Shown here piece by piece: positions 2,858-58,548 of a DNA stretch of 64,000 bases. The stretch is taken from positions 10,628-74,627 of IMG/VR virus record IMGVR_UViG_3300002185_000031. One strand, 5' to 3'. Source of the DNA: a virus (lineage: Duplodnaviria; Caudoviricetes). Position 1 is the stretch's first letter. Every line of letters begins with the position of its first letter. The notes under the pieces are model-generated. The model saw only the letters and a list, made by a program, of their open reading frames with translations, was not told where the DNA came from and made no database searches. Position numbers and translations under genes: made by a program.

Positions 2858-3562
2858 TTACCATGAATCTGGTAATCGGAATACTTGACCAGGAAATATC
2901 AAATTTCCCTGTCGGTGCGCCCCTGCTCTAGCATGTATTACATCTTGATTCAGCTCATACAACTCCCGCCAATTTGCCCCATTCCCGCTAAATCTCTGCG
3001 CTATACCCCACAAAGTATCACCACGAACAACCGTATAAGTTTCAGGCGAAGACGGCGGCACATTAACAACAGGCGGCGGTGGTGCTTCAACAGCTATCCC
3101 TTGCGGCGTATCTATCATCTGCAAAGTCTGAACCTCATGCGGCACATACTCAATCAAATCAAGCCTATAATGGATATCATCAGGGAAAAGGCTATCAATT
3201 TCCCTATTACGATACTCACATAACACCATTACATTAGTTGCATAAGTGGGAATATCGCTGACAATAACCAGCCTTGCAGGCTCTCGGCTGCGTTGCCATA
3301 TATGCAGATAATCATTATACTGCCGTGCTGTAAATCCGCCCTCAATGTACCTATCTATCCAGCGTTGACTAAACTGACTGTCTATAGATACCGTGGCAAG
3401 TCCTTGAAATGATGGAGCGGACACATCGCCCACGCTTAATATATTATGTATTTGGGCTTGTGAGGCTCTGGGGAAGTCCAAACGGTCTACCAGCTCTGGG
3501 ATAATCAAACTCCCGCCGGGGAATCCGTGCCATTCTAAGTGTATGAAACATCTTCTTGTCAT
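2858..3562 (-). CDS. LysM-domain tail tube initiator (XkdP-like)
   Basis: C-terminal LysM: YTVVRGDTLWGIAQRFSGNGANWRELYELN..NLIFPGQVFRLP. Confidence 0.9.
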   Translation of the reverse strand: MTRRCFIHLEWHGFPGGSLIIPELVDRLDFPRASQAQIHNILSVGDVSAPSFQGLATVSIDSQFSQRWIDRYIEGGFTARQYNDYLHIWQRSREPARLVIVSDIPTYATNVMVLCEYRNREIDSLFPDDIHYRLDLIEYVPHEVQTLQMIDTPQGIAVEAPPPPVVNVPPSSPETYTVVRGDTLWGIAQRFSGNGANWRELYELNQDVIHARAGAHRQGNLIFPGQVFRLPDSW

Positions 3563-34966: not shown

Positions 34967-35692
34967 TTATATTACTAATGCAATTTGCGATAGCAGCAAT
35001 CGGAATGTTTCCCGTCCTCTGGGAGTTATCAATGTTTGGACACCCGATTTCTCATCTCTCGTCCATTCTTTTAACTTGAATACGCCTTTGTTGACATGGG
35101 GCATATAGGGCTTTATACTGCCTTTTTCATCTCGATAGATGTATTTGTTTTGGGTCAGCCAATCAATAAAATATTTCTGCCCGATTTGGAGTTCTTTGGC
35201 AGTATCTCTGAAATTGGTTAAGAGGTTAGTATCTACGAGTTGGTCAAAGTATTCTGCTTTTGGTTTCATTTCTTGATTTTGCATAGCAAGGCGTTCTTTT
35301 TCTTTTTCGGAGGCAACTAGAGCTTCGAGAGCTTCTATGTAGGTTTGGGGGAGTTGGATTTTAGCTTTTAGCTCCTCTTCCAGTTTATTAATATAAGCAA
35401 GTACAGCCTTTCTAACCAACTTACTTTCTCTAACCAGCACTTGTCTTGATTGTGGTAAAGTTAGCTCAAACATTGGATACATTTGCCCATTTTGTGGGTG
35501 TTTGTAATAGGTCTCCAATAATTCTCGGATACCTATTTCTTCCTCAAACTCGTCACGGATGATATTCAAAAGAGTATCATGTCGAAGTTCCGATTTACCC
35601 TCAATCTCTGCCCGAAACATGTTTATCACTTTGACCAGTTCCAGACTGCTAATCATGCCGCTGCCGTTTGACATTTTGATTAATTCGTTCAT
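34967..35692 (-). CDS. Antirepressor with KilA-C/ANT domain
   Basis: LPQTYIEALEAL..KPKAEYFD..TNFRDTAKEL..TLITPRGR. Confidence 0.9.
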   Translation of the reverse strand: MNELIKMSNGSGMISSLELVKVINMFRAEIEGKSELRHDTLLNIIRDEFEEEIGIRELLETYYKHPQNGQMYPMFELTLPQSRQVLVRESKLVRKAVLAYINKLEEELKAKIQLPQTYIEALEALVASEKEKERLAMQNQEMKPKAEYFDQLVDTNLLTNFRDTAKELQIGQKYFIDWLTQNKYIYRDEKGSIKPYMPHVNKGVFKLKEWTRDEKSGVQTLITPRGRETFRLLLSQIALVI

Positions 35693-37224: not shown

Positions 37225-38025
37225 TTAAGTTCGTTTAATTTTGTGGTTTAGTATGGTTGTTGCATTCGCATATCCCGGTTTAACTTTGATACCTTGCCGC
37301 ATAAGCTCTCTCGAAAAGCTATTTTTGCCTAGTGGTTGGGTTTTGTTAGCTCTACACCAGATAAGGTAGTATTCAAATGCCAATTTTAAAGGCGTATGAG
37401 TATTGGAGAGTTCTAAGGCATCAGCAACAAACTTGGCTACTGCTACGCCTTGCTGCTCTTTATCGGGGCATATTGGTTTGGCAGAGGTTGGTTTTGTGGT
37501 TTCTATAGGCTCAATCCCCAGCTCTTGCAAAGCATAGGGAAGAGTGGCAGATGTATGACCTTTTAGCATTTTCAATCGCCATTCTTTGCTTGCTTTTAGC
37601 TCTTGCGCCATGTTGTTGAAAGCGTTGATGTAAGCAATTTTGAACTTCAACGCTTTTGCTCCAGAAAAGCCCATCACAAGTAAGGTAAAGCCATCAAATG
37701 TCATTTCATATTCACGTTGTTGTCGATTCATAGAATCTAAATATTCATTTGGGATAAACCATTGGGACAAAGTAATATGTTCTCCAATTTCTTTTGCTTG
37801 TCGCAAAATTCCTTGGTTTTTAGTTATTTTTTTGCTTTCTGTAGATAGGAGGGGATTTCCTCCTATCTTTTCTTTATTTTCGGTATTGCTATCATACCCC
37901 TCAATAGCCCGAATTACTTCTCTATGCTTTTTCTCAAAAACCTCTGCTACTCTACGGCTGTTCGCCACTATCTTATTATTCTTTACTGATAACCCAAACT
38001 CTTCCCTTGCCGCTAATTCGTTCAT
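37225..38025 (-). CDS. rha: Rha antirepressor fused to a D5/primase-type C-terminal wHTH
   Basis: ANSRRVAEVFEKKHREVIRAIE, MTFDGFTLLVMGF; C-terminal AFEYYLIWC..PLGKNSFSREL. Confidence 0.85.
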   Translation of the reverse strand: MNELAAREEFGLSVKNNKIVANSRRVAEVFEKKHREVIRAIEGYDSNTENKEKIGGNPLLSTESKKITKNQGILRQAKEIGEHITLSQWFIPNEYLDSMNRQQREYEMTFDGFTLLVMGFSGAKALKFKIAYINAFNNMAQELKASKEWRLKMLKGHTSATLPYALQELGIEPIETTKPTSAKPICPDKEQQGVAVAKFVADALELSNTHTPLKLAFEYYLIWCRANKTQPLGKNSFSRELMRQGIKVKPGYANATTILNHKIKRT

Positions 38026-41122: not shown

Positions 41123-42364
41123 GTCAATCACCCCACGGCTAAAGCCAGGGGCTTGTAAGTAGCCGAAACTAAAGCTCCTACGTTAAGCCAATTGACACAT
41201 GGCTTTACGGCTGATATTTACAGCCGCCACATTGTCCGCTGGGGCAGCGTACCCACAGGAAAGACAACAGAAATTATCCCTTGTTTTACGGTTATTTTTT
41301 TCAACATGACCGCATACAACACAAGTGCGAGAAGTGTTGCGCGGGTCAATTAAGGCAATCGGAACACCTGCTATTTTAGCTTTATAGCTAATGAATTGCC
41401 TTAACTGATAGAACGCCCACGATGATTGTCTGCTACGCTGTGACTTTCTAACCGTTTTCTCGGTACGTAGGCGAATGCCCGATAAATCTTCAAGGGCAAT
41501 ACCTACGCCGAGTGCCTTAGCCTTTTTGACAATCTGTTTGCTTATTACATGATTAGTGTTGCGTACAAAACGCTGCTCTTTCTTAGAACGTTTCTTCAAC
41601 AAACGCTTTGCGGATTTTGTGCCTTTGGATTGCAATTTTGCCCTAAGTTTGGCGTTACGGTTGCGTACAGCATTAACAGCAGAGCCAGAAAAGTTTTCGC
41701 CTGTGCTGTCAGTAGCAAGGTTAGCAATCCCAACGTCAATGCCAAGAAAATCATTACTATCTACTGGCGGTGCTTCTGGCACTTCCACAGCAAGCATGAG
41801 ATAAAAAACACCGTCTTGCAGAATTAAATCTGCTTGCCCACGAACACGGTTGCCATAAAGCAAGCCATGATGATACTTGCCAAGAACTATAGGCACTTTG
41901 ATTCTACCATCAAGCGTAAGAAGTGAGGCGTATTCCATGCCATTAAAAGAAAGTATGCGTTCGTCATACACCATAGCCCCAGTATCTTTGAAAGTATGCA
42001 GAGTTTTCTTATCTGCCTTATAACTTTCAGATACCTTGCCTATAGCACGAACAACCATTTGAGCGGATAGACCAAATTGTTCACGCACATCATAATAGCA
42101 AGCCTTTTGAAGTTTAAATTTAGAGAACGTTCCTAAGTTAAAGGCAACTTTGCTGATATGATTACAGGCTTGGTTAAATCGTTTCATAGTTGCAAGCAAA
42201 GAATTAAACTGTTTTTCATCTGGCACTAATTTAATTTTGAGTGTGCAAATCATCAAATCACCTCAAAATTATTATATCATTATTGAATAATAATGTCAAT
42301 ACATTTGAGAGAGGAAGCCGCTTTCCTCCCCATATCTAAAGATAGGGGCTTCTTGCGGCTATTG
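41123..42364 (-). mobile_element. Non-autonomous IS200/IS605 (IS1341-type) element
   Basis: Subterminal hairpins cccctatctttagatatgggg (left end) and cccctggctttagccgtgggg (right end, ending TTGAC); TCAC 5' of the left end; no tnpA. Ends are inferred. Confidence 0.8.
41183..42256 (-). CDS. tnpB: RNA-guided endonuclease TnpB
   Basis: RuvC triad LGIDVG / IALEDL / ADNVAAVNI; Zn ribbon TSRTCVVCG..CLSCG. Confidence 0.97.
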   Translation of the reverse strand: MMICTLKIKLVPDEKQFNSLLATMKRFNQACNHISKVAFNLGTFSKFKLQKACYYDVREQFGLSAQMVVRAIGKVSESYKADKKTLHTFKDTGAMVYDERILSFNGMEYASLLTLDGRIKVPIVLGKYHHGLLYGNRVRGQADLILQDGVFYLMLAVEVPEAPPVDSNDFLGIDVGIANLATDSTGENFSGSAVNAVRNRNAKLRAKLQSKGTKSAKRLLKKRSKKEQRFVRNTNHVISKQIVKKAKALGVGIALEDLSGIRLRTEKTVRKSQRSRQSSWAFYQLRQFISYKAKIAGVPIALIDPRNTSRTCVVCGHVEKNNRKTRDNFCCLSCGYAAPADNVAAVNISRKAMCQLA

Positions 42365-44278: not shown

Positions 44279-44959
44279 TTATCTGAATTTTCGGCGCATT
44301 ATGGAGTGGATATTTGCGCCGATTGGCTTTATTTCAAGGCCGCAATGCTTTAGTTCTTGGGTGAAACGCTTTTTGCCTATGGGAGTGAGCTTGCTTGTTC
44401 TGCACCATGTGACATAGTATTCAAAGGCTGTTTTTAGGGGGATTGCGTTGTCTGCGGGTTCTAAGGTTTCTGTGATAAACCTTGCTATTGCGGGAGCGTA
44501 TTCCTCGTTGGATGGAGCAGCAGCAGTCTTTGATAGGATAGACAGGGCGGGGTTTATGCCTAGTTCTTGAAGGACGTAGGGGAGTTGATATTTGTTGGCT
44601 TTAGTGATGTATTTTAGGCGTGTTTCGGGGTCTAAGGTGTATGAGCCTGTTTTTCTTATGGAGGGGAGGACTTCGGACGTTACCCATTTGCGGAATTTTT
44701 TGGCTTGCGGCTTATTGGAGCGCAAAACGGCAGCATATAGACCTGATTCATTTACTAAAATCATTTCACGCTCTTGTCCACCTGACACTACTTTTTTTCG
44801 GGTCAGCTCATCATCATCTAATCTATCTGCAACACGTCCGACATCTGATAACTTCAAAACTTTGCAAATATCAGCCAACACAAACCACGGCTCACCATTT
44901 AGCCGAACTTCTCTTAAATCGTCAATCCCAAATTGGAATATTGTCACGTTATTCATCAA
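44279..44959 (-). CDS. BRO-N antirepressor fused to a D5/primase-type wHTH
   Basis: PWFVLADICKVL..VNESGLY..AKKFRKWVTSEVLPSIRKTGSY; C-terminus homologous to that of the 37225 Rha. Confidence 0.9.
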   Translation of the reverse strand: MMNNVTIFQFGIDDLREVRLNGEPWFVLADICKVLKLSDVGRVADRLDDDELTRKKVVSGGQEREMILVNESGLYAAVLRSNKPQAKKFRKWVTSEVLPSIRKTGSYTLDPETRLKYITKANKYQLPYVLQELGINPALSILSKTAAAPSNEEYAPAIARFITETLEPADNAIPLKTAFEYYVTWCRTSKLTPIGKKRFTQELKHCGLEIKPIGANIHSIMRRKFR

Positions 44960-45132: not shown

Positions 45133-45615
45133 CTAACGAAACAAAACAAGCGTTACCTCAATATCCGAACCATTATCCAACTGCCACTGCAAACACGCCT
45201 CAACCGCAATCTGCAAAGCCTCCGCATACGGATATCCATATATCCCCGCCGACAACAGCGGAAAGGCTATGCTTTTTATGTCGGATTCCTTAGCCAACGT
45301 CAGCGCATTGATGTATGTGCCATATAAAAGCTCTTTCGCCTTTTGCGGCTCATACTGCGCATATATCGGGCCGACTGCATGAATGATATACTTTGCGGGT
45401 GTTCCCCAGCTTGGCGTTATTAACGCCTTGCCTGTCTGGATTCCATGATATGGCACTTTATCGCAGATATAATCTTCAAGCCTCTCACCGCCATCTCCTT
45501 GAGCGGCATATATCGCACCACATACGCCTGCGCCTCTTTGCAATTGTGCATTGGCGGCATTAACTATCGCATCAACTTGTACTTTGGTGATATCACCATA
45601 GATTATTTTTAACAT
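45133..45615 (-). CDS. Macrodomain ADP-ribose hydrolase
   Basis: GDITK..DAIVNAAN..GAGVCGAI..IIHAVGP..SIAFPLLSAGIYGYP. Confidence 0.95.
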   Translation of the reverse strand: MLKIIYGDITKVQVDAIVNAANAQLQRGAGVCGAIYAAQGDGGERLEDYICDKVPYHGIQTGKALITPSWGTPAKYIIHAVGPIYAQYEPQKAKELLYGTYINALTLAKESDIKSIAFPLLSAGIYGYPYAEALQIAVEACLQWQLDNGSDIEVTLVLFR

Positions 45616-47273: not shown

Positions 47274-47509
47274 ATCGCCACCTCCTTATCAGTCATATCC
47301 TCAACATAATAAGGCGCAAAAGGATTATGTGCCTTATATGCCATCAATGCAAACTTTCTGTCTTTCGTCTTAATAAATTCCTTATCAGGTTTATTGCCGC
47401 CTGTCCATTTGATGATATAATAGTTGTCGTTTTTTATTAATATTGGTTTTCTATCCATATCACCATCCTCCTTTCTCATTAGTATCATCATACCATACCC
47501 ATTACACAA
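47270..47509 (-). CDS. Hypothetical early protein (likely start MDRKP)
   Basis: Follows the family-A promoter at 47487-47515. Confidence 0.6.
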   Translation of the reverse strand: MCNGYGMMILMRKEDGDMDRKPILIKNDNYYIIKWTGGNKPDKEFIKTKDRKFALMAYKAHNPFAPYYVEDMTDKEVAI

Positions 47510-47515
47510 TGTAAA
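47487..47515 (-). promoter_or_regulatory. Sigma-A promoter, family A (left border of island)
   Basis: TTTACA-ttgtgtaatgggtatgg-TATGAT. Confidence 0.8.
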
Positions 47516-47593
47516 GAGATTTTTACAAAATATTTCATAAATTTTTTACCCAACTTTTCAAGCATTTTTAAAAATCGTTACTTATGCGGTTAT

Positions 47594-47794
47594 ATGTTAT
47601 TATTGTACTCAGAGGTGTTGCAAATGCTAGATTTAAAAGAAAAAGCTATCCGCACATTATCCGCCATGTCGGATGGCGATAAGGAAGAATTAAAAAAAAT
47701 GATAGATTTTAGCTCGGCGTATTTACAAGATATTGTATCACCTATTTATCAGAAAGACTTCGAGAGAGAGCTGCGGGAGTTACTAATGGAATAG
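47594..47794 (+). CDS. Hypothetical protein, first gene of the island
   Basis: GAGG RBS; likely start MLDLKEK. Confidence 0.6.
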   Translation: MLLLYSEVLQMLDLKEKAIRTLSAMSDGDKEELKKMIDFSSAYLQDIVSPIYQKDFERELRELLME

Positions 47795-47807
47795 TGGAGG
47801 CTGCAAA

Positions 47808-48389
47808 ATGATTAAAGTTAAACAATTGCAAAATACAACTAAAATATTTTCAGATGAGGCATTTAATTCTCATTATGAGCTATATAAAAATTATTGTGTT
47901 AAATACAACGAGATTCAAGAAGAGTTAAAAGAATATGCGGGCTGTCCTGATGCGGATAAGAATTATTCACGGTATCGGGGCATAAAAAAAGAAGAGGCTC
48001 ACAATCTTAACGCCATAACGCTCCATGAGCTATTTTTCAAGAATATATCAGACAATTCAACAAACCCACAAGAGCATTTTACAGAGCTTGTACAGCGTTT
48101 TTTTGGTAGTTTTGAAGATTGGCAAAAAGATTTCATTGCAACTGCAAAAGCAAGCCGTGGCTGGGTTGTAACTGTGTATGAGCAGCGTTCAGGTGAGATT
48201 AAAAATATGCTGATAGATAATCATGATATAGGTGTTTTTATAAGTTCGTATCCGCTCTTAGTGTTGGATTGCTGGGAACACAGCTATATAATGGACTGTC
48301 ACAATAATATTGACAAATACATTGAAAAGTTTTTACATAACATTGACTGGCGTGTGGTTGAAACACGCTCAAAAGCCGTGGAGGTGTAA
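47808..48389 (+). CDS. Fe/Mn superoxide dismutase-like protein
   Basis: Metal ligands FNSHY, TLHELFF, LDCWEHSY. Confidence 0.92.
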   Translation: MIKVKQLQNTTKIFSDEAFNSHYELYKNYCVKYNEIQEELKEYAGCPDADKNYSRYRGIKKEEAHNLNAITLHELFFKNISDNSTNPQEHFTELVQRFFGSFEDWQKDFIATAKASRGWVVTVYEQRSGEIKNMLIDNHDIGVFISSYPLLVLDCWEHSYIMDCHNNIDKYIEKFLHNIDWRVVETRSKAVEV

Positions 48390-48392
48390 ATA

Positions 48393-48659
48393 ATGGATGA
48401 TAAATTCGTAAAAAACGTAGCTCTTGGTGCAATTCTAGCGGGTACAGGCTTGATTTTGCATTCGTTGAGTAATGCTCCAAAAGAGATTAAAGACGAGCTG
48501 CAAAAAGTATCTGGCGTTGATGGCATAGATGCTGTTAAACAATTGATAGATTCTAAACATGAAACTAAGAACCAAGAACATACGGAACATACGGACGAGC
48601 AGCAACCTAAACATGGGGAAGATGGGGAAGATGGGATTAAACTTATTCCGAGTATTTAA
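48393..48659 (+). CDS. Small protein with N-terminal TM
   Basis: VALGAILAGTGLIL; GGAGG RBS. Confidence 0.65.
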   Translation: MDDKFVKNVALGAILAGTGLILHSLSNAPKEIKDELQKVSGVDGIDAVKQLIDSKHETKNQEHTEHTDEQQPKHGEDGEDGIKLIPSI

Positions 48660-49234
48660 TGGGGGTGCTTAACATGAATAGTGGATATGATATGTTGCGT
48701 CAATTTTTAGCGGGCGAAAACCCTGCTGCGAATAATCAGAATCAAAACCAGAATTATGCACAGCAACAGTCTGTCGATACGTTACAAAAACCACAAGCAA
48801 GCAAACGGATATTTGAAATTAGTTCTAAGGATGATTTGCCATATTTAGAGCCTGATGATTCTGGGCAAAAACAAATAGCCATATGCGAGGCTGAAAATCG
48901 CATATATGTAGGGCGGTATAACCACAGCCGTAAAGCTACAGATTGGAGAAAATCCTATATTGAGGAAAGCGAAATGCCTATACCGCAGCCCGCCGATAAT
49001 TCCGAAATTATGAATAAAATTGTTGATGTGCTGGTGGGATTGAGCAGCAAACTTGATGCTATTGATGAAAAACAAGATAGCGTTGCGGCTGAAATAAAGC
49101 AGATTAAGAAAAAAGCGGCACAACCTACAGCTGCTGAATCAATACCAATAACAAAGTCTAAAGCTAAACCGAAAAAGAAAGCCCCGATTGTTGCAGATGA
49201 AGACGATGATGAGGATTATGAAGAGGAGGAATAG
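48659..49234 (+). CDS. N/Q-rich hypothetical protein
   Basis: Low-complexity N-terminus, coiled coil, acidic tail. Confidence 0.75.
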   Translation: MGVLNMNSGYDMLRQFLAGENPAANNQNQNQNYAQQQSVDTLQKPQASKRIFEISSKDDLPYLEPDDSGQKQIAICEAENRIYVGRYNHSRKATDWRKSYIEESEMPIPQPADNSEIMNKIVDVLVGLSSKLDAIDEKQDSVAAEIKQIKKKAAQPTAAESIPITKSKAKPKKKAPIVADEDDDEDYEEEE

Positions 49235-49237
49235 ATT

Positions 49238-49639
49238 ATGAAAACAAGTGATATTATCAGTTTTGCAATGGGTGTGCCTGCTCTTGCGGGATTGGCTATG
49301 AAAGCCAAGAATACAGGCAAAGTTGATAAATACGAAGCCTTAAAAGCGGTTTCTTCCCTTTCTCCTGATTTGAAAAAATGCACCAATATAGCACTTGATT
49401 CAGCAGATGCGGGGGAGAGTTTGCCACAAATAGCTGGCAAACTAATGAATGTTGGTGAAGTATCTCTGTTTGGCAAAACGATTAACACAAGAACTATGAA
49501 AGATGATCTAAGAGAATATGGCGGTAAGCCCGGCTCAATTTTGGCTAACATCCTTGATTGGATGCCCACAGCCCCGCCGGAGCAAGTCGTATCTTTCGGT
49601 GATAGCGCAAGCGATTTGAAAACTTGGATTAATAGCTAA
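49238..49639 (+). CDS. Hypothetical protein
   Basis: Coupled operon gene. Confidence 0.7.
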   Translation: MKTSDIISFAMGVPALAGLAMKAKNTGKVDKYEALKAVSSLSPDLKKCTNIALDSADAGESLPQIAGKLMNVGEVSLFGKTINTRTMKDDLREYGGKPGSILANILDWMPTAPPEQVVSFGDSASDLKTWINS

Positions 49640-49685
49640 TGCCATTGGCATTACTATAAATATCATATAAGAAGGAGGAACACAC

Positions 49686-50225
49686 ATGGATTTCACACAT
49701 GATGGGGATTATGTCCGTACTGGTGGAGCGGGCGGCGGTATAAGCGCAGCTGCAATGATGATGATGGCTGTTGTGGTATTTGTAATTATATTTATCATAG
49801 CTGTTATTTTTTTAGCCGCTTTTGCCTTTAAAGACAAAGACAAAAGAGTTGTTGACGAATACCCACGCAAAGAAAACAACATCGCTGAAATGATGGCTAT
49901 GATGATGGGCGCAAAGGCCATGGGAAACGATAATGGCAACTACAAAAACCACGCAGACCTTGACAGGAAAGAAATTCTGGAAAAGTTAGAGCATAATGAG
50001 GATAGGGCTGTTGCAAGACAAACCCAGTCTGAAATTGGTGCGCTTGGTTTATTGATGCAAAAAGAAATGAGCGACAATGAAAAATTGAACCTTACTAATT
50101 TTGCAAAACTTGAAAACCAGCTCGGAGCTTTGACCATGGGCATGACTACATTGTTGACCGAAAGAAACAACGATGTTATTGTGGACAAATTGCTGAACCG
50201 TCTGGCTTGGGGTAAGGCTTGCTAA
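49686..50225 (+). CDS. Gly-rich TM / coiled-coil protein
   Basis: AAGGAGG RBS; GGAGGG followed by a hydrophobic helix. Confidence 0.75.
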   Translation: MDFTHDGDYVRTGGAGGGISAAAMMMMAVVVFVIIFIIAVIFLAAFAFKDKDKRVVDEYPRKENNIAEMMAMMMGAKAMGNDNGNYKNHADLDRKEILEKLEHNEDRAVARQTQSEIGALGLLMQKEMSDNEKLNLTNFAKLENQLGALTMGMTTLLTERNNDVIVDKLLNRLAWGKAC

Positions 50226-50350
50226 TTGCTTAACCCCTGTATTTATCTAATTCCGATATCTAACCCGATATTGCTTGGCTGGCGCGCCAAATGTATATAC
50301 AAGTCGGGTGGTGGAGGGTTTGATAAATATATATGAAAGAGGGTTTTCCT

Positions 50351-51659
50351 ATGATTACTTGCAGAACTGGCGAAACTTTCTCAAGATTCGCTTGCCCTCC
50401 TAGACGACATCGTGACGTTAGAGCCACTGCCGTTAGGAATTTTCCTGTACAATGTCAAGCACCGAAGCCAATTAGCGGTGTTCGGGTAGTCCAAGAAGCG
50501 GGTGTTCAAAACGCTTTGATTCTTGTCGGAGGCGTAGATGCTTTTATGCCAAATATGGACTACAACCTTGTGCTGTCAGAAAACGTGATTAATCCCACAT
50601 CATTTAATTTCCCGGCGTATCTTTTGGTAAAGGCTGGAGATTTACACACATTGGATGTGAAAATGTCCGTTCACACTTTTTCTGCTAATCAGCAGGGTAT
50701 TATGGTAGCTTAAAAAATAGCCATAATGCTAACGGGGAAACCTAAACCTATACGGTATGGCAATCCCGTGGGAAGTCCTAATAATAGGAAACCTGTATCG
50801 ACTATCCGCTTGGTAGCGGAGTAGGGTTGCTATTGATACGCAACTCGAAATGGGTGTGGTGTTGCAACTGCAACATTAAGAGATAGTCAGTACCTATGGA
50901 AACATAGGATAAAACGGTTACTACAGCCAATTTGCAAAATCACCCAGTAACACGCTTTTTGCGTCATACTTTTGATGGCGTTAATGCTGATGACTTGTTC
51001 GAGCTTGCGCCAGATGACTTGTTGGCAGAAACTCAAACAAATCATTGCATACCACCTCGCAAGCCAGTTGTAAACATAATTCACCCTGCATCTTTGCAAG
51101 GTAGAAGTTATGTTACTATCCGTATTGATTATTATCAATGTGGTCAGTTCATTACAGAAGAATTTTGGTGGAATACTGCCGTCCTCAATAGTAATATTGA
51201 GGATTATGAGTGGGCAAATACGGTAAATTCTAAACCGAGGATATCGGCATGAAAATACCGTGGTAAGCAATCAGATTGCGAAAGGCTGATTGCCACTGTA
51301 GAGCGTACAGGGTGAATAAATATAATCCCTGCAAGAGTGTCCGCAGCCCTACATTCGAGGGTTAAAATGTACGCCGAACTATCCGAAAGGAATAGAAGCA
51401 AAGGATAAAAAGCCTTTGCGATAACATAATTGATATTATTCCAATCATCCGTATGGACACACAAACCCTGCGTGGTGCTGATTTGGTTAATTGGGTAGAC
51501 AATGCCAACAGAGCAGTATCTCGCGTGATTATCCCTTGCGAAAGCAACGACCGCGGCGAACTTCTTATCCCAGAACCTGTTCAAAACAGATGCGGACATA
51601 GAGGATTTGTCGGCGGCGGGCATAACGGATTTAATATGATTCGTAGTGCTTGGGCGTAA
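50351..51659 (+). CDS. Three-exon gene (50351-50623, 50917-51169, 51433-51659), 250 aa after removing two group I introns
   Basis: Exon lengths 273+253+227=753 nt, in frame; junctions read PAYL|VTTAN and EEFW|YIIPII. Confidence 0.7.
50624..50916 (+). ncRNA. Group I intron 1 (IA2/T4 td-like, no homing endonuclease)
   Basis: P4 ACGGGG/AATCCCGT; P7 GACTA(50800)/TAGTC(50884); P7.1 and P7.2; P8; GAAA-capped P9; P9.0 GT/AC before omega-G. 5' splice site less certain. Confidence 0.85.
51170..51432 (+). ncRNA. Group I intron 2 (IA-type, no homing endonuclease)
   Basis: P1 with U51169.G51178; GTAA-capped P2; P3 GTGGGCA/TGTCCGC; P4 ACGGTA/TACCGT; P7 GCGTAC/GTACGC; P9 and P9.1; ends ATAATTG. Confidence 0.88.
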
Positions 51660-51722
51660 AATTAATTGGAATAAGGGGGCGAGGGCAACTTTGCCCCCTC
51701 TTTTCTAAAAGGAGAGAGTAAA

Positions 51723-51917
51723 ATGACAGAAACATTATCATATAACGTGCCATGTTGCGCTATCCTAAAAGCATTAATCCTGTCCTATGCTGATAAGCAA
51801 GCCGTTACTCTTACTAATAACGATATTGACAAAATTATATTGACTATCAATCAAGAAGGACAAGAAAAGGCTTTAGCTATCGTTAATGGGTATTTGGCTG
51901 GTTTGAAGTCTAGTTGA
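51723..51917 (+). CDS. Hypothetical protein
   Basis: AAAGGAG RBS. Confidence 0.7.
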   Translation: MTETLSYNVPCCAILKALILSYADKQAVTLTNNDIDKIILTINQEGQEKALAIVNGYLAGLKSS

Positions 51918-51918
51918 T

Positions 51919-53028
51919 ATGGAAGTCTATCTCGATAATGCAGCTACGACAAAAATTGATGATAGAGTTTGGGAATACATGATTAGCCTAAAAGAGCATT
52001 ATGGTAACGCTTCATGTCCTCATGCTATGGGCAAGAAAGCACAAGAAATAATCGAAAATGCTCGTGAAATCATCGCTAAAAAAATCAATGCCAGCCCAAA
52101 CGAAATAATCTTCACTAGCAGCGGTACAGAATCAAATAATTTAGCAATACTCGGCTTTGTTAGTGCTAATATGCGCAAACGGCAGCATATCATAACCACT
52201 GCAATAGAACATATAAGTGTTATTGAGCCGTTAGAACATTTGAACTATTGCGGGTATGATGTGTCTTTCTTGTCTGTAAATAGCCAAGGGTTGATTGATA
52301 TTTCCTTGTTAGAAAATGAAACATTTCATGATACTGCCCTAATATCAGTAAGTTTGGCAAATAATGAACTTGGCACAGTCAATGACATTGCAGCTATAGG
52401 TAAAATTGCTAAACGCCATGGGATTATTTTTCACTGTGATGCTGTTACGGCGTTCCCGCATATGCCTATTGATGTTAAGGCTTTGGGCGTGGATATGATG
52501 AGCTTGTCAGCGCACAAGGTATACGCCCCTAAAGGTATCGGTGCATTATATATTAGCAAAGATATTGATATTGAGCCTATTGTATTTGGCGGCAAGGCTG
52601 AGTTTGGTATTCGTGCGGGTACGGAAAATGTGTTGGGGATTGCTGCTATGGGTAAAGCGATTGAAATCTTGGATTATTCGGCCTACAACAAAAGCCTAAT
52701 TTATCAGTTTCAACAAGACATTAAAATCAATGTACGGCCTGCATATTTTAATAATCTCAACCCCGAAATCCCCATCCTCAATGTACGATTTGACGGTATA
52801 GATGGTGCTTGGTTAGTACAGGCGTTATCTAACAGGGGCGTTTATGTATCGCAAGGCTCATGTTCAAATCGTGGTTTATCACATGTGCTTTTTGAGATTG
52901 GTTTAACAAAAAAACAAATTAGAGAAAGTATTAGGATTAGTTTGTCAAAATATACCACACAAGAAGAAATCGAGTATGCATTAAAAGTTTTGATTGAGTT
53001 AATAAATAACCCGAAAGGGATTATATAA
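51919..53028 (+). CDS. iscS: Cysteine desulfurase (IscS/NifS class)
   Basis: YLDNAATT, FTSSGTESNN, HCDAV, PLP Lys in SAHKVYAPKGIG, RAGTENV, catalytic Cys in SQGSC. Confidence 0.95.
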   Translation: MEVYLDNAATTKIDDRVWEYMISLKEHYGNASCPHAMGKKAQEIIENAREIIAKKINASPNEIIFTSSGTESNNLAILGFVSANMRKRQHIITTAIEHISVIEPLEHLNYCGYDVSFLSVNSQGLIDISLLENETFHDTALISVSLANNELGTVNDIAAIGKIAKRHGIIFHCDAVTAFPHMPIDVKALGVDMMSLSAHKVYAPKGIGALYISKDIDIEPIVFGGKAEFGIRAGTENVLGIAAMGKAIEILDYSAYNKSLIYQFQQDIKINVRPAYFNNLNPEIPILNVRFDGIDGAWLVQALSNRGVYVSQGSCSNRGLSHVLFEIGLTKKQIRESIRISLSKYTTQEEIEYALKVLIELINNPKGII

Positions 53029-53078
53029 ATGCCGACTGGGTAAAGCCAGCGGGGTAAAAATGAAAAGGAGTAGATAGT

Positions 53079-53789
53079 ATGGACAGGCACACAAACAGAG
53101 CAGCCCATGACGAGGCGAGGCACAATGCAGAAGAAACATTGCGCATGACAAATGCGGATTTGCGCAACCCAAGAATTGCTAATAATGCAAGACGTAGGCA
53201 CATGCTTACCACTATGAAGCGTGAGGCTATGGCGACCATAGCTGAACATGACCGTATGTATGGCGACCGCAATGACCGTCATAATGATGATTACAGAAAT
53301 AATAATCGCAACGACCGCTACAACTACAGGCATAACGATTACCGCAGTGATAACGACCGCCGCATGGACATGATTCATGATGCAATGGACGTAGTAGATA
53401 GAATCCTACCCCATATTACAGGTGAAATGGATGATTATACCGTAGAAAATCGCCGTGGAGTATTTCGCTCTCGTCCAGGGCATAGGAGAGATGGAAGAAA
53501 AACAAGCCCATACCGTGGCGGGAAAAAGTATCATGCTACTGCTGATATGAACAACTACAGCGATGATTATTCTGACGATTGGGAAGATGATGCAGAAAAT
53601 CGCCAACGTGCGGACGATATGGCAAGAACCGCCGCAACAGCAGCCGCTAATACGGCTCGGCGCATGATGGATGACCGCAACCGCTCTGACTATTATCCGC
53701 CTGTAATGCCAAGACAAGACAAAAACGATGACAGGCGCACGATGGATGAGGATGCTGCTCATGGGGCAAGACCAGGAACACGTAGATAA
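53079..53789 (+). CDS. D/R/N-rich low-complexity protein
   Basis: Repetitive NDR/NDY motifs; AAGGAG RBS; terminator at ~53799-53832. Confidence 0.8.
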   Translation: MDRHTNRAAHDEARHNAEETLRMTNADLRNPRIANNARRRHMLTTMKREAMATIAEHDRMYGDRNDRHNDDYRNNNRNDRYNYRHNDYRSDNDRRMDMIHDAMDVVDRILPHITGEMDDYTVENRRGVFRSRPGHRRDGRKTSPYRGGKKYHATADMNNYSDDYSDDWEDDAENRQRADDMARTAATAAANTARRMMDDRNRSDYYPPVMPRQDKNDDRRTMDEDAAHGARPGTRR

Positions 53790-53853
53790 TTTAATTTTCA
53801 AGCCCCTGTCATTGTGATAGTGGCAGGGGCTTGTATTTTTAGGCGGTGATATT

Positions 53854-54435
53854 TTGAACGCAATAGACTTACTGAATACATTAAACAGCAAATACCTATC
53901 AGCAGTTGACTTTCACCGCAACCTTAGCGACTTATACACATGGCTATCGCTTGAAGGATATGCTGCATGGCACAGCTATCAGATGGCAGATGAGCTATTA
54001 ATGCAACGCAAAATCAAAAAGTTCATTGCCGAAAACTATAATATGCCTGTTCCCGATGTTTACAATGGCAGTGTTGATATATTCGAGAATTATACCTCCA
54101 ATCTAAGTCGTGACAAAATTCCAGCAGACAGACGACTTGATATCATCAAGCAGACATGGGAAAAGGATTATATTGATTGGGAAAATGCCGCCCTTTCTGC
54201 TTATGAAGATATCGCCAAAAGGTTACTTGAATTAGGTGATATTGTGGCATTTAACTTTGTCGGCCGCATTATCAGTGAAGTAGCTGGCGAACTTGCCAGA
54301 GTTAAAAACAAAGTCATTGAACTGCAAGGGCATGAATGGGATATGCCACAAATTACAGCAGAGCAATTAGAGCTAACTGATATTTATAGCAAACGGCTTA
54401 ATGAGCTGCGATTTGGGGATGAGCTACTCAGATAG
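53854..54435 (+). CDS. Ferritin-like (four-helix bundle) protein
   Basis: FHRNL..GYAAWHSYQMADE..WENAAL..YE..EVAGELARV. Confidence 0.7.
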   Translation: MNAIDLLNTLNSKYLSAVDFHRNLSDLYTWLSLEGYAAWHSYQMADELLMQRKIKKFIAENYNMPVPDVYNGSVDIFENYTSNLSRDKIPADRRLDIIKQTWEKDYIDWENAALSAYEDIAKRLLELGDIVAFNFVGRIISEVAGELARVKNKVIELQGHEWDMPQITAEQLELTDIYSKRLNELRFGDELLR

Positions 54436-54651
54436 TTTGGGTTTTCTGTGTCTTAGTATAAGACATTTTTCACAAATTGCATCATGAAAACCTTCAAAGT
54501 CTTCAAAAAAATCCATACCATGGTCTGCTTCACCGCAATAATCACAAGTCGTTTCATATAGCTGAAAATATCCGACTAATCAAGTGTCGCATAGATGCAT
54601 ATGTTTATATTTACATGTTGCATTTATACCACAATCATCACATTTTTTCAT
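54424..54651 (-). CDS. 75-aa four-CxxC metal-binding protein with in-frame TGA (54580-54582); selenoprotein candidate or pseudogene
   Basis: AAAGGAG RBS; MKKCDDC..LCDT*L..TCDYC..ICEKCL..SE-TAG; hairpin immediately after the TGA. Confidence 0.65.
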
Positions 54652-54683
54652 TATAATTCTCCTTTCGATAGTGGAGGTTCAAT

Positions 54684-54818
54684 ATGTTTAACTCACCAGC
54701 TTTATATATTGATAAAATTTTTCTAAGCAATTATGCTCTTTTGCTTGTGGCTATACTTCTTTTAGGGCTTATTGCATTGTTACTGTATGGAATACCCAGA
54801 GCTATAAGGAGGCGTTAA
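54684..54818 (+). CDS. 44-aa single-TM peptide
   Basis: GGAGG RBS; YALLLVAILLLGLIALLLYGIPRAIRRR. Confidence 0.65.
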   Translation: MFNSPALYIDKIFLSNYALLLVAILLLGLIALLLYGIPRAIRRR

Positions 54819-54819
54819 T

Positions 54820-55077
54820 ATGGAAAACGAAAACATAAGAGGTGGATGTGGAAGTACACGGTGCTTTCAACTCTCTCATTTTCGCTGTCCACGATTCAAA
54901 AATGAAGTAATCCGCTTATTAGACAAGGTATTTGCTACTGATAAGGATGTATCAGACTTGCTTAAACGGATTGAGGCACTTGAGGCAAGTGGTGGAGCTG
55001 TATTGCCTAATATAACGGCACAAGCTGAAACACTTCCACCAAGTTCACAAGCGACTGCAAATGTAGTCGTAACATAA
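54820..55077 (+). CDS. Fibre-like segment 1 (coiled coil plus half repeat)
   Basis: LLKRIEALEA..ETLPPSSQATANVVVT. Confidence 0.75.
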   Translation: MENENIRGGCGSTRCFQLSHFRCPRFKNEVIRLLDKVFATDKDVSDLLKRIEALEASGGAVLPNITAQAETLPPSSQATANVVVT

Positions 55078-55098
55078 AAATAATAGGAGGAATTTATT

Positions 55099-55401
55099 AT
55101 GACAACGTGGAATTTTGAATTTGGAATCCCTTCTGGATTATCAGCCTACGATGTAGCAGTAGCAAACGGTTTTGTAGGCACGGAACAAGAATGGCTTGCA
55201 AGTCTTGTAGGCGCAGCAGGTACAAATGGCACAAACGGCGAATCCGCTTATCAAATCTGGCTTGACCAAGGAAATACTGGTACAGAGCAAGATTTTCTTG
55301 ATTCTATTGCGGCAACGGCAGTAGCAGATATTACTTTTACAGCCAGCGCAACAGCTTTAAGCCCAGGCAGTCAACCAACTGTACAAGTTACAACGGCATA
55401 G
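55099..55401 (+). CDS. Fibre-like segment 2 (collagen-associated repeats)
   Basis: GLSAYDVAVANGFVGTEQEWLASL; GESAYQIWLDQGNTGTEQDFL. Confidence 0.8.
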   Translation: MTTWNFEFGIPSGLSAYDVAVANGFVGTEQEWLASLVGAAGTNGTNGESAYQIWLDQGNTGTEQDFLDSIAATAVADITFTASATALSPGSQPTVQVTTA

Positions 55402-55413
55402 GGAGTTGATATT

Positions 55414-55854
55414 ATGTCAAAAACAGTAAACTTTGCTTTCGGCATACCGCAAGCCCCAAATTATACAACTATGTTCTGGTCGGGCTATGGTTCAGGTTCT
55501 ACTATCGCCGTAGTTTTAGGCGGTACGCCTGTGCCATTAATCCAAACCACCGCATCAGGTATAACCTTTTCTGGCAATGATGTATTGACCATACAAACCG
55601 CTGGAACATACTTAATATCTTATAAGGTAAATACAACAGCCAGCCTGTTAATGTCAGCGGCAGTTTATCAAAATGGAATTGCGATACCTAGCCTTATCAG
55701 TAATCTTGGTATTGCGGCAAACTCCTTTAGTGGTGAGGCCATTGCCATACTGTCAACAGGTGATACTCTTGAACTTATGCTTTATGGATTGCTTGACACA
55801 GCTGTGCTTGTAGGCGGTGCAGGTGCTACGCTAAATGTTATTCGTATTGCTTGA
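55414..55854 (+). CDS. BclA C-terminal (C1q/TNF-like) domain protein
   Basis: SGITF..LTIQTAGTYLISYKVN..FSGEAIAILSTGDTLEL..ATLNVIRIA. Confidence 0.8.
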   Translation: MSKTVNFAFGIPQAPNYTTMFWSGYGSGSTIAVVLGGTPVPLIQTTASGITFSGNDVLTIQTAGTYLISYKVNTTASLLMSAAVYQNGIAIPSLISNLGIAANSFSGEAIAILSTGDTLELMLYGLLDTAVLVGGAGATLNVIRIA

Positions 55855-55911
55855 TAACGCAAGCCCTAATTAACTTTAGGGCTTGCGTTATTGTGATAAA
55901 TTCAGTTCTTC

Positions 55912-56478
55912 TTGGAGGCTATTATGATTATCTTTGAAAAAACCCCCTATGGTGAAAGAAATATCGAACTTCAAGCAAGGCTTTTTGAAGATAGAATTAT
56001 CTGGCTCACAAGTCATATTAATGCCTTTAACGCCGAACAAATAGCACAACAAATGCAAATTCTTAATTTGCAAGATAATTCTAACATCAAATTTTATATC
56101 AACAGTCCAGGCGGAAGTGTCACAGATGGCTTAATGATTTATGACATTATGCACACAATCCGCCCGAAGGTTGATATATTTTGCGTTGGTCAATGCTGCT
56201 CGATGGCAGCAGTCCTCCTTGCGTCCGCAACAGGTACACGATATGCCTATGAAAATGCTACGATAATGATTCATAAAGTTTCAGCGGGTACTTTTGGCAA
56301 AGAGCCTGATATGGCTATATCGCTAGAACACACTCAAGCCTTAAACGACAGGCTTATGCGTATATTGGCAAGAAATACCAACAAAAGCATAGAGCAAATA
56401 TACACTGATACCGATAGAGATAAATTTTTTACTGCTAGGGAGGCTTTAGATTATGGTTTGGTTGATGTAATGATTTGA
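55912..56478 (+). CDS. clpP: ClpP protease subunit
   Basis: RLFEDRIIWL, YINSPGGSVTDG, CCSMAAVLL (Ser), IMIHK (His), DRDKF (Asp). Confidence 0.95.
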   Translation: MEAIMIIFEKTPYGERNIELQARLFEDRIIWLTSHINAFNAEQIAQQMQILNLQDNSNIKFYINSPGGSVTDGLMIYDIMHTIRPKVDIFCVGQCCSMAAVLLASATGTRYAYENATIMIHKVSAGTFGKEPDMAISLEHTQALNDRLMRILARNTNKSIEQIYTDTDRDKFFTAREALDYGLVDVMI

Positions 56479-56503
56479 CATTGTGTAATGGGTATGGCAT
56501 AAT
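56475..56503 (+). promoter_or_regulatory. Sigma-A promoter, family A, facing antisense into the spo0A-like gene
   Basis: TTGACA-ttgtgtaatgggtatgg-CATAAT. Confidence 0.7.
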
Positions 56504-56506
56504 AAT

Positions 56507-56848
56507 TCACAAGGCTTCTATTATAATTTTATCCGCAATAGTCGCAATCACCTCACTATTAGTTAATTTTCTACGGTAATTTTCGCCAAAAAGAGTTATC
56601 TTAAACTCGTCATCGCCTCTATCAAGCGATACTTCGATTGCGTGTCTTATCGCTCGTTGAACTCTGCTTGAAGTGGTATTATTTTTTTGTGCCACAGTCG
56701 GATATATCTCTTTCGTTACATAATCTAACGCCGACATATCCTCGATAGCCATAAGAACAGCATCACGCAAAAATCTGTAGCCTTTTATGTGGGCTGGTAT
56801 ACCTAGTTTGTCAATTACTTTTGTTACTTTCAAGATGTTGTTGTTCAT
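56507..56848 (-). CDS. spo0A: Spo0A C-terminal DNA-binding domain only (no receiver domain)
   Basis: LGIPAHIKGYRFLRDAV..VTKEIYPTVA..TTSSRVQRAIRHAIE..TNSEVIA. Confidence 0.93.
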   Translation of the reverse strand: MNNNILKVTKVIDKLGIPAHIKGYRFLRDAVLMAIEDMSALDYVTKEIYPTVAQKNNTTSSRVQRAIRHAIEVSLDRGDDEFKITLFGENYRRKLTNSEVIATIADKIIIEAL

Positions 56849-57855: not shown

Positions 57856-58548
57856 TCAATAATAAAACGTATGATTTCCGTATACAAAAATCTTTGTACG
57901 ATTTTGGCTTGCCCAGCTTATGCCATGAATAGCGTTGGTGTTAAAGAACAACGCGCCTTGGCTGTAGTCTGTACCATTCAACGCCATTTCAATAGCTTCA
58001 AATTGCTCTTCTGTCGGTGTTGCTCTGTCAAAATTGCCGTCCCTGACAGGTTGAAATTGCATCGACTGGAGGATGACATCCTCTATTGTGTCAGGGAAAT
58101 ATGGGCTATATAGTCGATTCATAATAACATTCACCACAAGAATCATACCGCGCAACCCCTCACCCCTCGCCTCTGCCCATACTATCCGTGATAAAATATC
58201 GAGTTCATGTTCTGTCAGAGTGATATGTGCATAATCTGCACGCGCCTCTAAATCATCATACAACGCATCATAAGCCACGAACTCTACAAAACTATAATAT
58301 AATACAGGCGGCAACACTGCGGACGCACAGAGTGGCTCTATGTGCATTTTGAGAGGTGTTTCATATTCTGCATAATCCACAGCTGCATTTGTTTGGTTTA
58401 AATATTGCATATCATACATATGAGAAATATAAATCACTTGAGCGGCAAGAGTTTTATAATAAATGCAAAATATAAAAATCATTACCGCAAATAATGCGGG
58501 ACGTATGTCTTTTATTTTATTCATACGTATATCCTGCCCATTCGTCAC
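57856..58548 (-). CDS. SleB/CwlJ-like cell wall hydrolase (Hydrolase_2)
   Basis: LSRIVWAEARGE..VVNVIMNRL..FPDTIEDVI..QF..GALFF..YGNHTFY. Confidence 0.93.
   Translation of the reverse strand: MTNGQDIRMNKIKDIRPALFAVMIFIFCIYYKTLAAQVIYISHMYDMQYLNQTNAAVDYAEYETPLKMHIEPLCASAVLPPVLYYSFVEFVAYDALYDDLEARADYAHITLTEHELDILSRIVWAEARGEGLRGMILVVNVIMNRLYSPYFPDTIEDVILQSMQFQPVRDGNFDRATPTEEQFEAIEMALNGTDYSQGALFFNTNAIHGISWASQNRTKIFVYGNHTFYY

Follow-up and report, generated by a model that had tools for sequence, protein, structure and literature searches.

In phages of spore-formers, a survey of gut-phage sporulation genes has described truncated Spo0A proteins, with the DNA-binding effector domain only, and hydrolases of the SleB/CwlJ type (Schwartz et al., mBio 2023, PMC10294663). 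Single sporulation regulators and cortex hydrolases are thus known in such phages, but a multi-gene structural kit has not been shown. This is what makes worth a second look the 9-kb block of genes, henceforth the island, that lies on the strand opposite to its neighbors in the phage record IMGVR_UViG_3300002185_000031, a block for which an earlier note, made from the DNA letters, had put forward the hypothesis of a lysogenic-conversion module that remodels the host spore or builds a protective particle. The record is a single IMG/VR virus of 74,627 bp (linear class, CheckV completeness 84%), and the window, meaning the whole stretch of 64,000 nt that was analyzed, comprises its bases 10628-74627.

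The phage does have the genes to be expected from the gut-phage survey: one for Spo0A_C (56507-56848, minus strand) and one for a SleB-type protein with a Hydrolase_2 domain (57856-58548, minus strand), the neighbors claimed for the island. Neither, however, is part of it. Both lie outside it on the opposite strand, in a neighborhood of early and replication genes (encoding single-stranded DNA-binding protein, RecT and a primase-like protein), and Spo0A_C is missing from four related virus records, G001-G004, to be described below.

Then there are the moron or lysogenic-conversion cassettes of temperate Bacillota phages, whose usual place is downstream of the lysis genes and close to the attachment site. 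The island and its relatives are like them in standing apart from the lytic operons, in being mosaic and variable, and in lying after the lysin and holin genes and before TubZ (G002) or beside a recombinase gene (G004). They are unlike them in size (up to 16 genes), in their conserved core of several genes, and in having no toxin or obvious host-fitness factor.

Parts of the island recall other systems. Three of its open reading frames (ORFs), taken together, echo the anchor-stalk-head layout of the BclA exosporium glycoproteins, but here there are three cistrons, no collagen stalk in cis, an anchor particular to the module and, in G002, an unrelated tip; no exosporium-targeting motif or sigmaK promoter is shown for the fibre. 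Another product has the four-helix bundle with long crossover loop of ferritin and bacterioferritin, but it is known by its predicted fold, has no sequence match to them and appears to come from a virus-only family. In Staphylococcus phage Twort, orf142 is interrupted by several group I introns, and the gene that serves here as the module's marker is likewise split by more than one ORF-less self-splicing intron, the first of them above the Rfam threshold; it differs from orf142 in that its protein family is unrelated and its second intron, not recognized by RF00028, is defined by comparison with an uninterrupted relative, P0004. Finally, phages Mu (the G segment) and P1 (the C segment) have invertible fibre segments, and the island's fibre genes also lie within inverted repeats of about 30 bp, but here there is no invertase, the repeats belong to a promoter family, and most of the 9-kb block consists of genes unconnected with fibres.

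The island and its relatives

I propose that the island is an unusually elaborate copy of a mobile accessory module of the moron type, found among temperate phages of probably spore-forming Bacillota, and that the core of the module makes a fibre-bearing assembly. The probability of this is about 0.55. The island is a mosaic accessory module in a cargo slot of temperate phages.

The strand switch is real. Nearly all genes of the phage are on the minus strand, the exception being 47594-56478, where plus-strand ORFs with ribosome-binding sites (RBSs) amount to 16 genes, and GC and AT skew change sign at 48-56 kb only. The island of about 9 kb on the opposite strand therefore stands as claimed. 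Its genes, put earlier at about 17, are indeed co-oriented, but three ORF pieces prove to be exons, which leaves 16, and one ORF inside lies on the minus strand. The genes are as follows (aa, amino acids).

47594..47794, plus strand: first island gene, small helical protein of 66 aa; an alternative ATG at 47624 has a better RBS
47808..48389, plus strand: Fe/Mn superoxide dismutase (SOD), 193 aa; Sod_Fe_C match, metal ligands kept
48393..48659, plus strand: 88-aa protein; weakly hydrophobic N-terminus, His/Glu/Asp-rich tail
48659..49234, plus strand: 191-aa protein; N/Q-rich N-terminus, acidic C-terminal tail
49238..49639, plus strand: 133-aa protein; homologue in G002 (35%, E 3e-23)
49686..50225, plus strand: 179-aa single-pass membrane protein; Gly-rich N-terminus, Kyte-Doolittle window 3.46 at residues 29-47
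50333..51659, plus strand: marker gene, three exons and two introns; junctions from intron-less P0004
51723..51917, plus strand: 64-aa protein with CC motif; occupies the slot of a Cys protein of about 64 aa conserved in G001, G002 and G004
51919..53028, plus strand: NifS/IscS-type (group I) cysteine desulfurase, 369 aa; class-V aminotransferase match, SAHK and GSCS motifs
53079..53789, plus strand: 236-aa D/R/N-rich low-complexity protein; D 15%, R 18%, N 9%
53854..54435, plus strand: ferritin-fold protein, 193 aa; predicted model and structural matches
54424..54651, minus strand: small ORF with several CxxC motifs, a strong RBS and an in-frame TGA at codon 24
54684..54818, plus strand: 44-aa single-pass membrane protein; Kyte-Doolittle 3.01
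54820..55077, plus strand: fibre part 1, 85 aa; Cys/His-rich N-terminal anchor and short coiled coil
55099..55401, plus strand: fibre part 2, 100 aa; two tail-fibre repeats and four Gly-X-Y triplets
55414..55854, plus strand: fibre part 3, 146 aa; BclA_C (C1q/TNF-like) head domain
55912..56478, plus strand: ClpP of cellular type; CLP_protease match, probable start ATG 55925

The domain calls first made for SOD, IscS and ClpP hold (Sod_Fe_C, 9e-23; class-V aminotransferase, 3e-79; CLP_protease, 4e-55), and the N/Q-rich (191 aa), Gly-rich transmembrane (179 aa) and D/R/N-rich (236 aa) proteins are as they had been described.

The marker gene was the query that revealed the relatives: a search with its family led to overlapping JGI contigs L020/L021 and to the IMG/VR records G001-G004, two of which are complete (terminal repeats). 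With this phage, that makes six marker-bearing sequences. The gene orders of the relatives are these.

L020/L021: SOD (67%), homologues of the 88-aa and 191-aa proteins, two positional counterparts, marker, minus-strand Bro-N gene, fibre anchor (58%)
G002: lysin (Amidase_2-SH3-Hydrolase_2), holin-like ORF, homologues of the 191-, 133- and 179-aa proteins, marker, 345-aa protein sharing the anchor, TubZ (other strand)
G003: SOD (47%), marker, Tyr/Arg/acid-rich disordered protein, ferritin-like protein (30%), 44-aa membrane protein, sigma factor
G004: marker at contig end, then, across a 123-bp terminal repeat, small Cys protein, disordered protein, ferritin-like protein (36%), tyrosine recombinase
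G001: tail genes like those of this phage, homologue of the first island gene, marker

Five other phage sequences carry the core of the module, with its genes in the same order and 30-67% identical, and the block is a coherent module, not a random set of genes. The members of the core are a beta-rich protein of 257-261 aa (the marker), a ferritin-fold protein, small membrane proteins and proteins of low complexity, in some cases SOD, and a fibre that has a conserved Cys/His-rich anchor and an exchangeable distal part. In the relatives its slot is after the lysis genes or beside genes for integrase, TubZ or a sigma factor; the neighborhood in G003 also includes FtsK. The first island gene has its homologue (34%, E 2e-8) as the first module gene in G001/L022. 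The 88-aa protein matches the ORF that follows SOD in L020 (33% identity, E 1e-9), the 191-aa protein has homologues in L020 (E 1e-7) and G002 (E 1e-17), and the 179-aa membrane protein has one in G002 (42-46%, E 1e-30). The homologue of the 44-aa membrane protein (51%, E 3e-4) lies directly 3' of the ferritin-like gene in G003, SOD is found at the same module position in L020 and G003, and ferritin-fold homologues stand beside the marker gene in G003 and G004. The fibre anchor is conserved in L021 and forms the N-terminus of the 345-aa G002 protein, whose distal part is unrelated.

What does not recur is just what first drew attention. Spo0A_C, ClpP, BclA_C and the class-V aminotransferase (IscS) are absent from G001-G004, in a search run with a positive control, and the genes suggestive of spores are therefore additions particular to this phage. 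The check proposed earlier, that the cluster be conserved as a unit, thus gives a divided answer: the core is conserved, but those four genes occur in 0/4 related viral records, so that the "complete set" is no unit, and SOD accompanies the marker in 3/6 sequences and is absent from both complete related genomes. By comparison with its relatives this copy has gained two introns, the desulfurase, the BclA-type tip, the cellular-type ClpP and the small antisense CxxC gene. In G003 the ferritin-like and membrane protein genes abut, which makes the CxxC gene an insert here. Its TGA falls on the second Cys position of one motif, and it lies about 1.4 kb downstream of the NifS-like gene, itself a weak match to the selenocysteine lyase SclA (119 bits, below cut-off).

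Wider searches added no further example. Among deposited phages there is no close relative of the island DNA, and tblastn of IscS and SOD returned generic, mostly host-like matches and no record with two island genes. The 18 loci that SOD found in an IMG/VR scan are 29-38% identical to it, and none has a second island gene alongside; IMG/VR scans with the ferritin-like, BclA_C and IscS proteins gave nothing, nor did a metagenome scan with the ferritin-like alignment. The marker-family alignment found no prophage copy in species-representative genomes, and no paralogues of island genes were found elsewhere in the phage.

As for the phages that carry the module, the present one has PHROG matches to tail sheath, baseplate wedge, tape measure, tail fibre, portal and large terminase and a tyrosine integrase gene at genome 242-1222, and is therefore, judged by its gene content, a temperate, contractile-tailed myovirus. 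The hosts are probably spore-formers, since this phage encodes Spo0A_C and the SleB-type hydrolase, G002 a lysin with a SleB domain, and G003 a sigma factor like those of sporulation. The sigma factor (L024:13520-14134, plus strand) scores best on the SigG, SigK, SigE and SigF models, far below their cut-offs. A TubZ-type partition GTPase is encoded in a module-bearing relative at L023:14084-15127 (minus strand), and the presence of TubZ in such relatives points to a plasmid-prophage lifestyle.

The eye-catching spore set is thus a lineage-specific accretion, and beneath it is a previously unannotated module whose carriers have unrelated heads, so that it must pass from one kind of phage to another. 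Two of its protein families are missing from Pfam and PHROGs: that with the ferritin fold and that of the marker, important enough to carry two self-splicing introns. Besides these the module has a fibre with a swappable tip.

The marker gene, the fibre and the ferritin-fold protein

The ORF pieces at 50333-50713, 50932-51252 and 51453-51659 all belong, as exons, to a single gene, because P0004, which has no intron, is continuous across both junctions. P0004 is an uninterrupted relative of 257 aa, found by a search with exon 2 and 93% identical. It reads ...LHTLDV/TTANLQ... across junction 1 and ...EEFW/YIIPI... across junction 2, the slash marking the junction. The parts of the gene are:

50333..50656, plus strand: exon 1; start at 50333 or 50351 (the start used by P0004), ends in U
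50657..50916, plus strand: intron 1, group I, 260 nt; ends in G, Rfam RF00028 match, boundaries from P0004
50917..51169, plus strand: exon 2; 93% identical to P0004 along its full length
51170..51432, plus strand: intron 2, 263 nt; boundaries from P0004, 3' end like that of intron 1
51433..51659, plus strand: exon 3; completes the spliced 261-aa product

The bases at the splice sites are T at 50656 and 51169 and G at 50916 and 51432. Intron 1 matches RF00028 with 60 bits at 50672-50909 (gathering threshold 50). Intron 2 has no RF00028 match, even in a focused scan; what speaks for it is P0004, the similarity of its 3' end to that of intron 1, and a predicted protein of another phage, P0006, that ends at the same site. 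The end of that protein, ...EIWYESAVLNSNI, resembles exon 2 read through into intron 2 (...EEFWWNTAVLNSNI), and so a related intron probably occupies the same site of the marker gene in that phage. In L020, the closest relative, a gene for a 226-aa protein (L020:3781-4461, minus strand) is inserted between the membrane protein gene and the intron-less marker, in the same neighborhood that here holds introns. Stop-codon recoding was considered and rejected, in view of the absence of tRNAs from the window and of any pattern of in-frame stops.

The spliced product, 261 aa from the M at 50351, is beta-rich and poor in Lys, with several Cys near the N-terminus and a His/Gly-rich C-terminus. Its family is a small one, amounting to 4 clusters among 1.8e9 representatives.

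The fibre is in three parts. Its ORFs, of 85, 100 and 146 aa, share one reading frame and yet are separate cistrons; the idea that they are read through as one protein was rejected, since there are three stops at the first junction and each ORF has its own RBS. Both junctions cut the same motif, so that one part ends in ...P(P/G)SSQ.T..V.T and the next starts with ..NF.FGIP: part 1 ends ...PPSSQATANVVVT, part 2 starts ..WNFEFGIP and ends ..SPGSQPTVQVTTA, and part 3 starts ..VNFAFGIP. In another phage fibre, L046 (near 3100-3250), the junction motif is continuous (...APGSAVTV...AAVLDFSIPEG). The repeated cut in the fibre (54820-55857 as a whole) could be a recombination joint for the swapping of parts, or it could reflect non-covalent strand complementation between polypeptides.

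Part 2 has two copies of a common tail-fibre repeat, SAY[DQ]..GTEQ[ED][WF]L, and finds relatives in 13 PHROG tail-fibre families, in 80 viral loci and in the tail-fibre protein of L025. Part 3 matches PF18573 (BclA_C) at 4.5e-32 over positions 7-128 of 128 and is 45% identical to the heads of P0009 and P0010, canonical proteins in which an N-terminal domain is followed by collagen and BclA_C. These two carry PF01391; here there is no collagen region in the 146-aa ORF, and the preceding ORF has four Gly-X-Y triplets. Of the claim of collagen/BclA-like fibre parts, then, the head survives and the collagen shrinks to those triplets. Deposited phages gave no tblastn match to BclA_C.

The protein claimed to be ferritin-like earns the name by its fold and not by sequence families: it has no match at the sequence level in Pfam, NCBIfam, PHROG or the Protein Data Bank (PDB) and is nearly an orphan by sequence. 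The AlphaFold2 (AF2) model of the 53854-54435 product, with a mean predicted confidence (pLDDT) of 73.5, is a four-helix bundle with a long crossover loop. It superimposes on ferritins with Z 17.8 (root-mean-square deviation 2.0 A, 151/158 residues), and the top 50 hits all belong to the ferritin-like superfamily. Foldseek also matches it to ferritins and bacterioferritins, at TM-scores of 0.6-0.8. In the structural ranking true ferritins (Z 16-18) come before Dps (about 14), and Dps before Mn-catalase and a putative spore-coat protein (about 12.6). The family appears, from the searches, to be virus-only. Two proteins entertained as diverged members, of 188 aa in L022 and 183 aa in L023, were dropped (E 0.05 or no match).

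What the module may do

The only clear transmembrane proteins of the island are those of 179 and 44 aa, and no signal peptide is present in SOD, the ferritin-fold protein, the marker or the fibre parts. Since the soluble parts lack signal peptides and the anchor travels in company with the module rather than with virion genes, I infer an assembly in the cytoplasm. Most likely the core proteins would come together there as a fibre-bearing assembly, free or associated with the membrane, that has a ferritin-type component. SOD and the desulfurase, and ClpP likewise, would be additions that serve to protect or maintain the anaerobic cell when it is infected or lysogenic. Transcription would be graded by three internal hairpins, starting from a promoter that is neither strong sigma-70 nor of the promoter family (family A) described in the next section.

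Several points weigh against this proposal. The marker protein, its most conserved element, has no match to Pfam or PHROG, and its fold does not come to the rescue: the AF2 pLDDT is 45, the best Z in VIA is 2.5, BFVD gives nothing, ESM Atlas matches reach at most 0.84, and there is no PDB profile match. That there would be a physical assembly at all is a suggestion drawn from how the fibre is built and from the missing signal peptides. Two proteins match their counterparts by position and composition alone: homology between the 64-aa CC protein and the Cys proteins of G001, G002 and G004 is not detectable, and the 236-aa D/R/N-rich protein occupies the slot of R/D/E/Y-rich disordered proteins in G003 and G004 that are homologous to each other, with no homology to it detected. 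Three of the six marker-bearing sequences are fragments, in which absences are weak evidence. Finally, no promoter for the island was identified, and its expression may be lysogenic or late.

The best of the alternatives does without a structure. In a host sensitive to oxygen, SOD, the ferritin-fold protein, the desulfurase, the His- and acid-rich membrane proteins and ClpP would together protect Fe-S enzymes and proteostasis, whether in infection or in the lysogen, and the fibre genes would be unrelated neighbors. This is possible but less likely. The active sites of the enzymes look intact. SOD matches Sod_Fe_C at residues 88-187 (E 9.2e-23); there is no Pfam Sod_Fe_N match, but phmmer aligns residues 14-188 to the full-length Aquifex Fe-SOD of structure 1coj, with its His, His, Asp, His ligands kept (SHYE, TLHELFF, LDCWEHSY). 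The desulfurase (PF00266, 2.8e-79; TIGR03402, 2e-105) has the lysine motif SAHK for pyridoxal phosphate and the catalytic Cys loop GSCS, and phage-borne desulfurases constitute a PHROG family, phrog_12787. It is below every equivalog cut-off, the best being NifS (352 bits vs 531), with IscS, DndA and SclA also below. Its candidacy as a family 2A encapsulin cargo was rejected (NF041166, 127 bits vs 800, the catalytic part alone being covered). ClpP (PF00574, 4e-55) aligns with Staphylococcus aureus ClpP at residues 3-186, keeping the Ser/His/Asp triad and the N-terminal region, at scores below equivalog level (TIGR00493, 173 vs 308.6). To these kept catalytic residues may be added, for stress and metal handling, the well-supported ferritin fold, the SOD that goes with the marker in half the sequences, and the His/Glu- and His/Gly/Asn-rich tracts of the 88-aa protein, the L020 ORFs and the marker C-terminus. 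However, the ferritin-fold protein has no ExxH di-iron motif in its sequence (the ferritin ligand positions were mapped by eye), and the most conserved member of the module, the 257-aa protein, has no signature of a redox or metal enzyme. The gene for the fibre anchor holds its place in the conserved order in three sequences, and the two complete relatives keep the core without SOD, desulfurase or ClpP. Should the module be merely stress-protective cargo, it would be an ordinary, though large, case of phage auxiliary genes.

The spore itself was a destination that the earlier note had in mind. Spelled out, this reading has products of lysogenic conversion placed on the host spore from the mother cell, where the BclA fibre, SOD and the ferritin-fold protein, as coat or exosporium components, would alter resistance or adhesion. 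I consider this doubtful, though part of what was claimed does hold. There is an accessory module and an integrase, Spo0A_C and a SleB-type hydrolase adjoin the island, and relatives have a SleB-domain lysin (G002) and a sigma factor like SigG, SigK, SigE and SigF (G003). The BclA_C head is 45% identical to those of collagen-like BclA-type proteins, and no other example is found in deposited phages. In Bacillus and Clostridioides difficile, SodA and ferritin-fold Mn-catalases (CotJC, CotCB, CotD) are associated with the coat, and the fibre, SOD and ferritin-fold proteins are like coat proteins in having no signal peptide. It is conservation, sigma promoters and coat homology that are wanting. 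What is conserved of the module does not include BclA_C, ClpP, IscS or Spo0A_C, as already seen, and the core consists of virus-only families with no Pfam, NCBIfam or PHROG similarity to coat or exosporium proteins. No promoter consensus of the sigmaE, sigmaK, sigmaF or sigmaG type occurs on the coding strand of the island, a weak negative in that the consensus is derived from Bacillus. In structure the ferritin-fold protein resembles cage ferritins more closely than it does Mn-catalase or the putative coat protein, and transmembrane proteins are unusual in coats. The gut-phage survey (PMC10294663) does not contain the words coat, exosporium, superoxide or ClpP.

The core might also be a phage kit, with exchangeable fibres and redox proteins, that builds a fibre-bearing layer or nanoparticle in the cytoplasm of the sporulating cell and ends on the host spore; this I find rather unlikely. 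Remodelling of the spore surface by temperate phages, if true, bears on the transmission and persistence of gut and soil Bacillota.

Less likely still is that the products belong to the virion, with the fibre as an accessory side fibre, the 257-aa protein as its adaptor and ClpP as the missing head-maturation protease. The shaft part does have the standard tail-fibre repeat, and an anchor with exchangeable tip is a typical design of receptor-binding proteins. The module comes after tail genes in G001 and, in late orientation, after lysis genes in G002. Phage introns are often found in highly expressed late genes. The head module, SPP1-like with a gp7-like protein, a scaffold-like protein and a capsid protein, was found to have no dedicated protease, and ClpP also matches head-maturation protease PHROGs. 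But there is no match to this phage's capsid or portal protein in G001-G004; in phages whose capsid and portal genes are unrelated, the anchor cannot dock on a shared head. The module lies 20 kb from the structural genes, on the opposite strand. Its ClpP is of the full-length cellular type, scoring 188 bits on the cellular subfamily model NF001368 (cut-off 249) against 95 on the head-maturation model NF045542 (cut-off 120), and none of the relatives has one. SPP1-type heads are not known to need a protease, and this head module has its scaffold-like protein. SOD and the ferritin-fold protein would be left unexplained.

The bounding repeat and the surroundings of the island

The edges of the island are marked by an inverted repeat of 32 nt, with arms at 47484-47515 and 56475-56506 that are 88% complementary (28/32 positions).

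47484..47515, minus strand: left arm; family-A sigma-70-like promoter, TTTACA-17-TATGAT with TG
56475..56506, plus strand: right arm; family-A promoter, TTGACA-17-CATAAT with TG

Both arms are outward-facing promoters of the sigma-70 type with an extended -10 element. The left one fires leftward into a minus-strand operon (a small ORF, then an N6/N4 methylase), with RBS and ATG about 25 nt downstream. The right one overlaps the clpP stop codon and, without a downstream ORF, points antisense into spo0A_C; it would yield RNA antisense to spo0A_C and the genes beyond. The two near-identical outward promoters that were said to bound the island are therefore real, but they are members of a family of five in the genome, and the right-hand one has no gene to serve. 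The copies are at 56475-56503 (plus strand) and, on the minus strand, at 47515-47487, 46207, 9207 and 5289. All four minus-strand copies sit 20-30 nt before an RBS and ATG, and that at 56475 is the sole plus-strand one. The family has the form TTGACA-TTGTGTAATGGGTATG(R)-TATAAT, and the CATT-N4-AATG within its conserved spacer may be an operator. I read the arms as two members of this family of promoters, which are probably operators too, and not as recombination sites.

It is very hard to believe, then, that the repeats mark an invertible cassette of the Mu G or P1 C type or a transposon with terminal inverted repeats, despite their position exactly at the island edges (28/32), the fibre genes inside and the strand of the block opposite to that of the genome, given that four of the five copies hold ordinary positions before minus-strand genes, that the genome (in a record 84% complete) has no serine invertase or Resolvase-family gene, that the sole tyrosine recombinase is about 57 kb away and no transposase is in the island, that inversion would leave genes driven by outward promoters unchanged, and that the modules of relatives are not seen bounded by such repeats.

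Within the island there are three hairpins.

51674..51699, plus strand: GC-rich hairpin with T-run, RBS and ATG 23 nt later; intra-operon attenuator or mRNA stabilizer, by its position
53799..53833, plus strand: 16-bp stem with T-run, 20 nt before the next start codon; candidate intra-operon attenuator
55854..55891, plus strand: perfect 16-bp inverted repeat between the BclA_C gene and clpP

After each of them the next RBS and start codon come within 20-35 nt, which leaves no room for internal promoters; the island therefore appears to be transcribed as one or two long messages that are attenuated internally. Promoter motifs shared between the region upstream of the island and the starts of other operons were AT-rich chance matches only.

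On the left the island is flanked by genes for a methylase, a Macro-domain protein (window 45133-45615, minus strand) and a Bro-N protein. PADLOC found no defense-system family among 10 island proteins and exons. Outside the window, at genome C1:4196-7801, lies a four-gene operon that resembles NAD salvage (NadE-, Nampt-, Prs- and nicotinamidase-like, by their N-terminal sequences); it and the Macro-domain gene may be counter-defense genes.

Antirepressor-type genes (Ant, Rha-like and Bro-N) are scattered in the late region at 34967-35692, 37225-38025 and 44279-44959, all on the minus strand, and one of them separates the portal gene from the head gene that follows. Between the genes for the small and large terminase, at 41183-42256 (minus strand), there is an inserted gene for an IS605-type transposase (E 1e-41 to PHROG transposase families). 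Its best matches, at 71%, are in a metagenome-assembled genome of Clostridia and in Geobacillus, which is consistent with a host in the Bacillota and allows no finer assignment. The phage has a near-identical twin, a contig of 74,891 bp.

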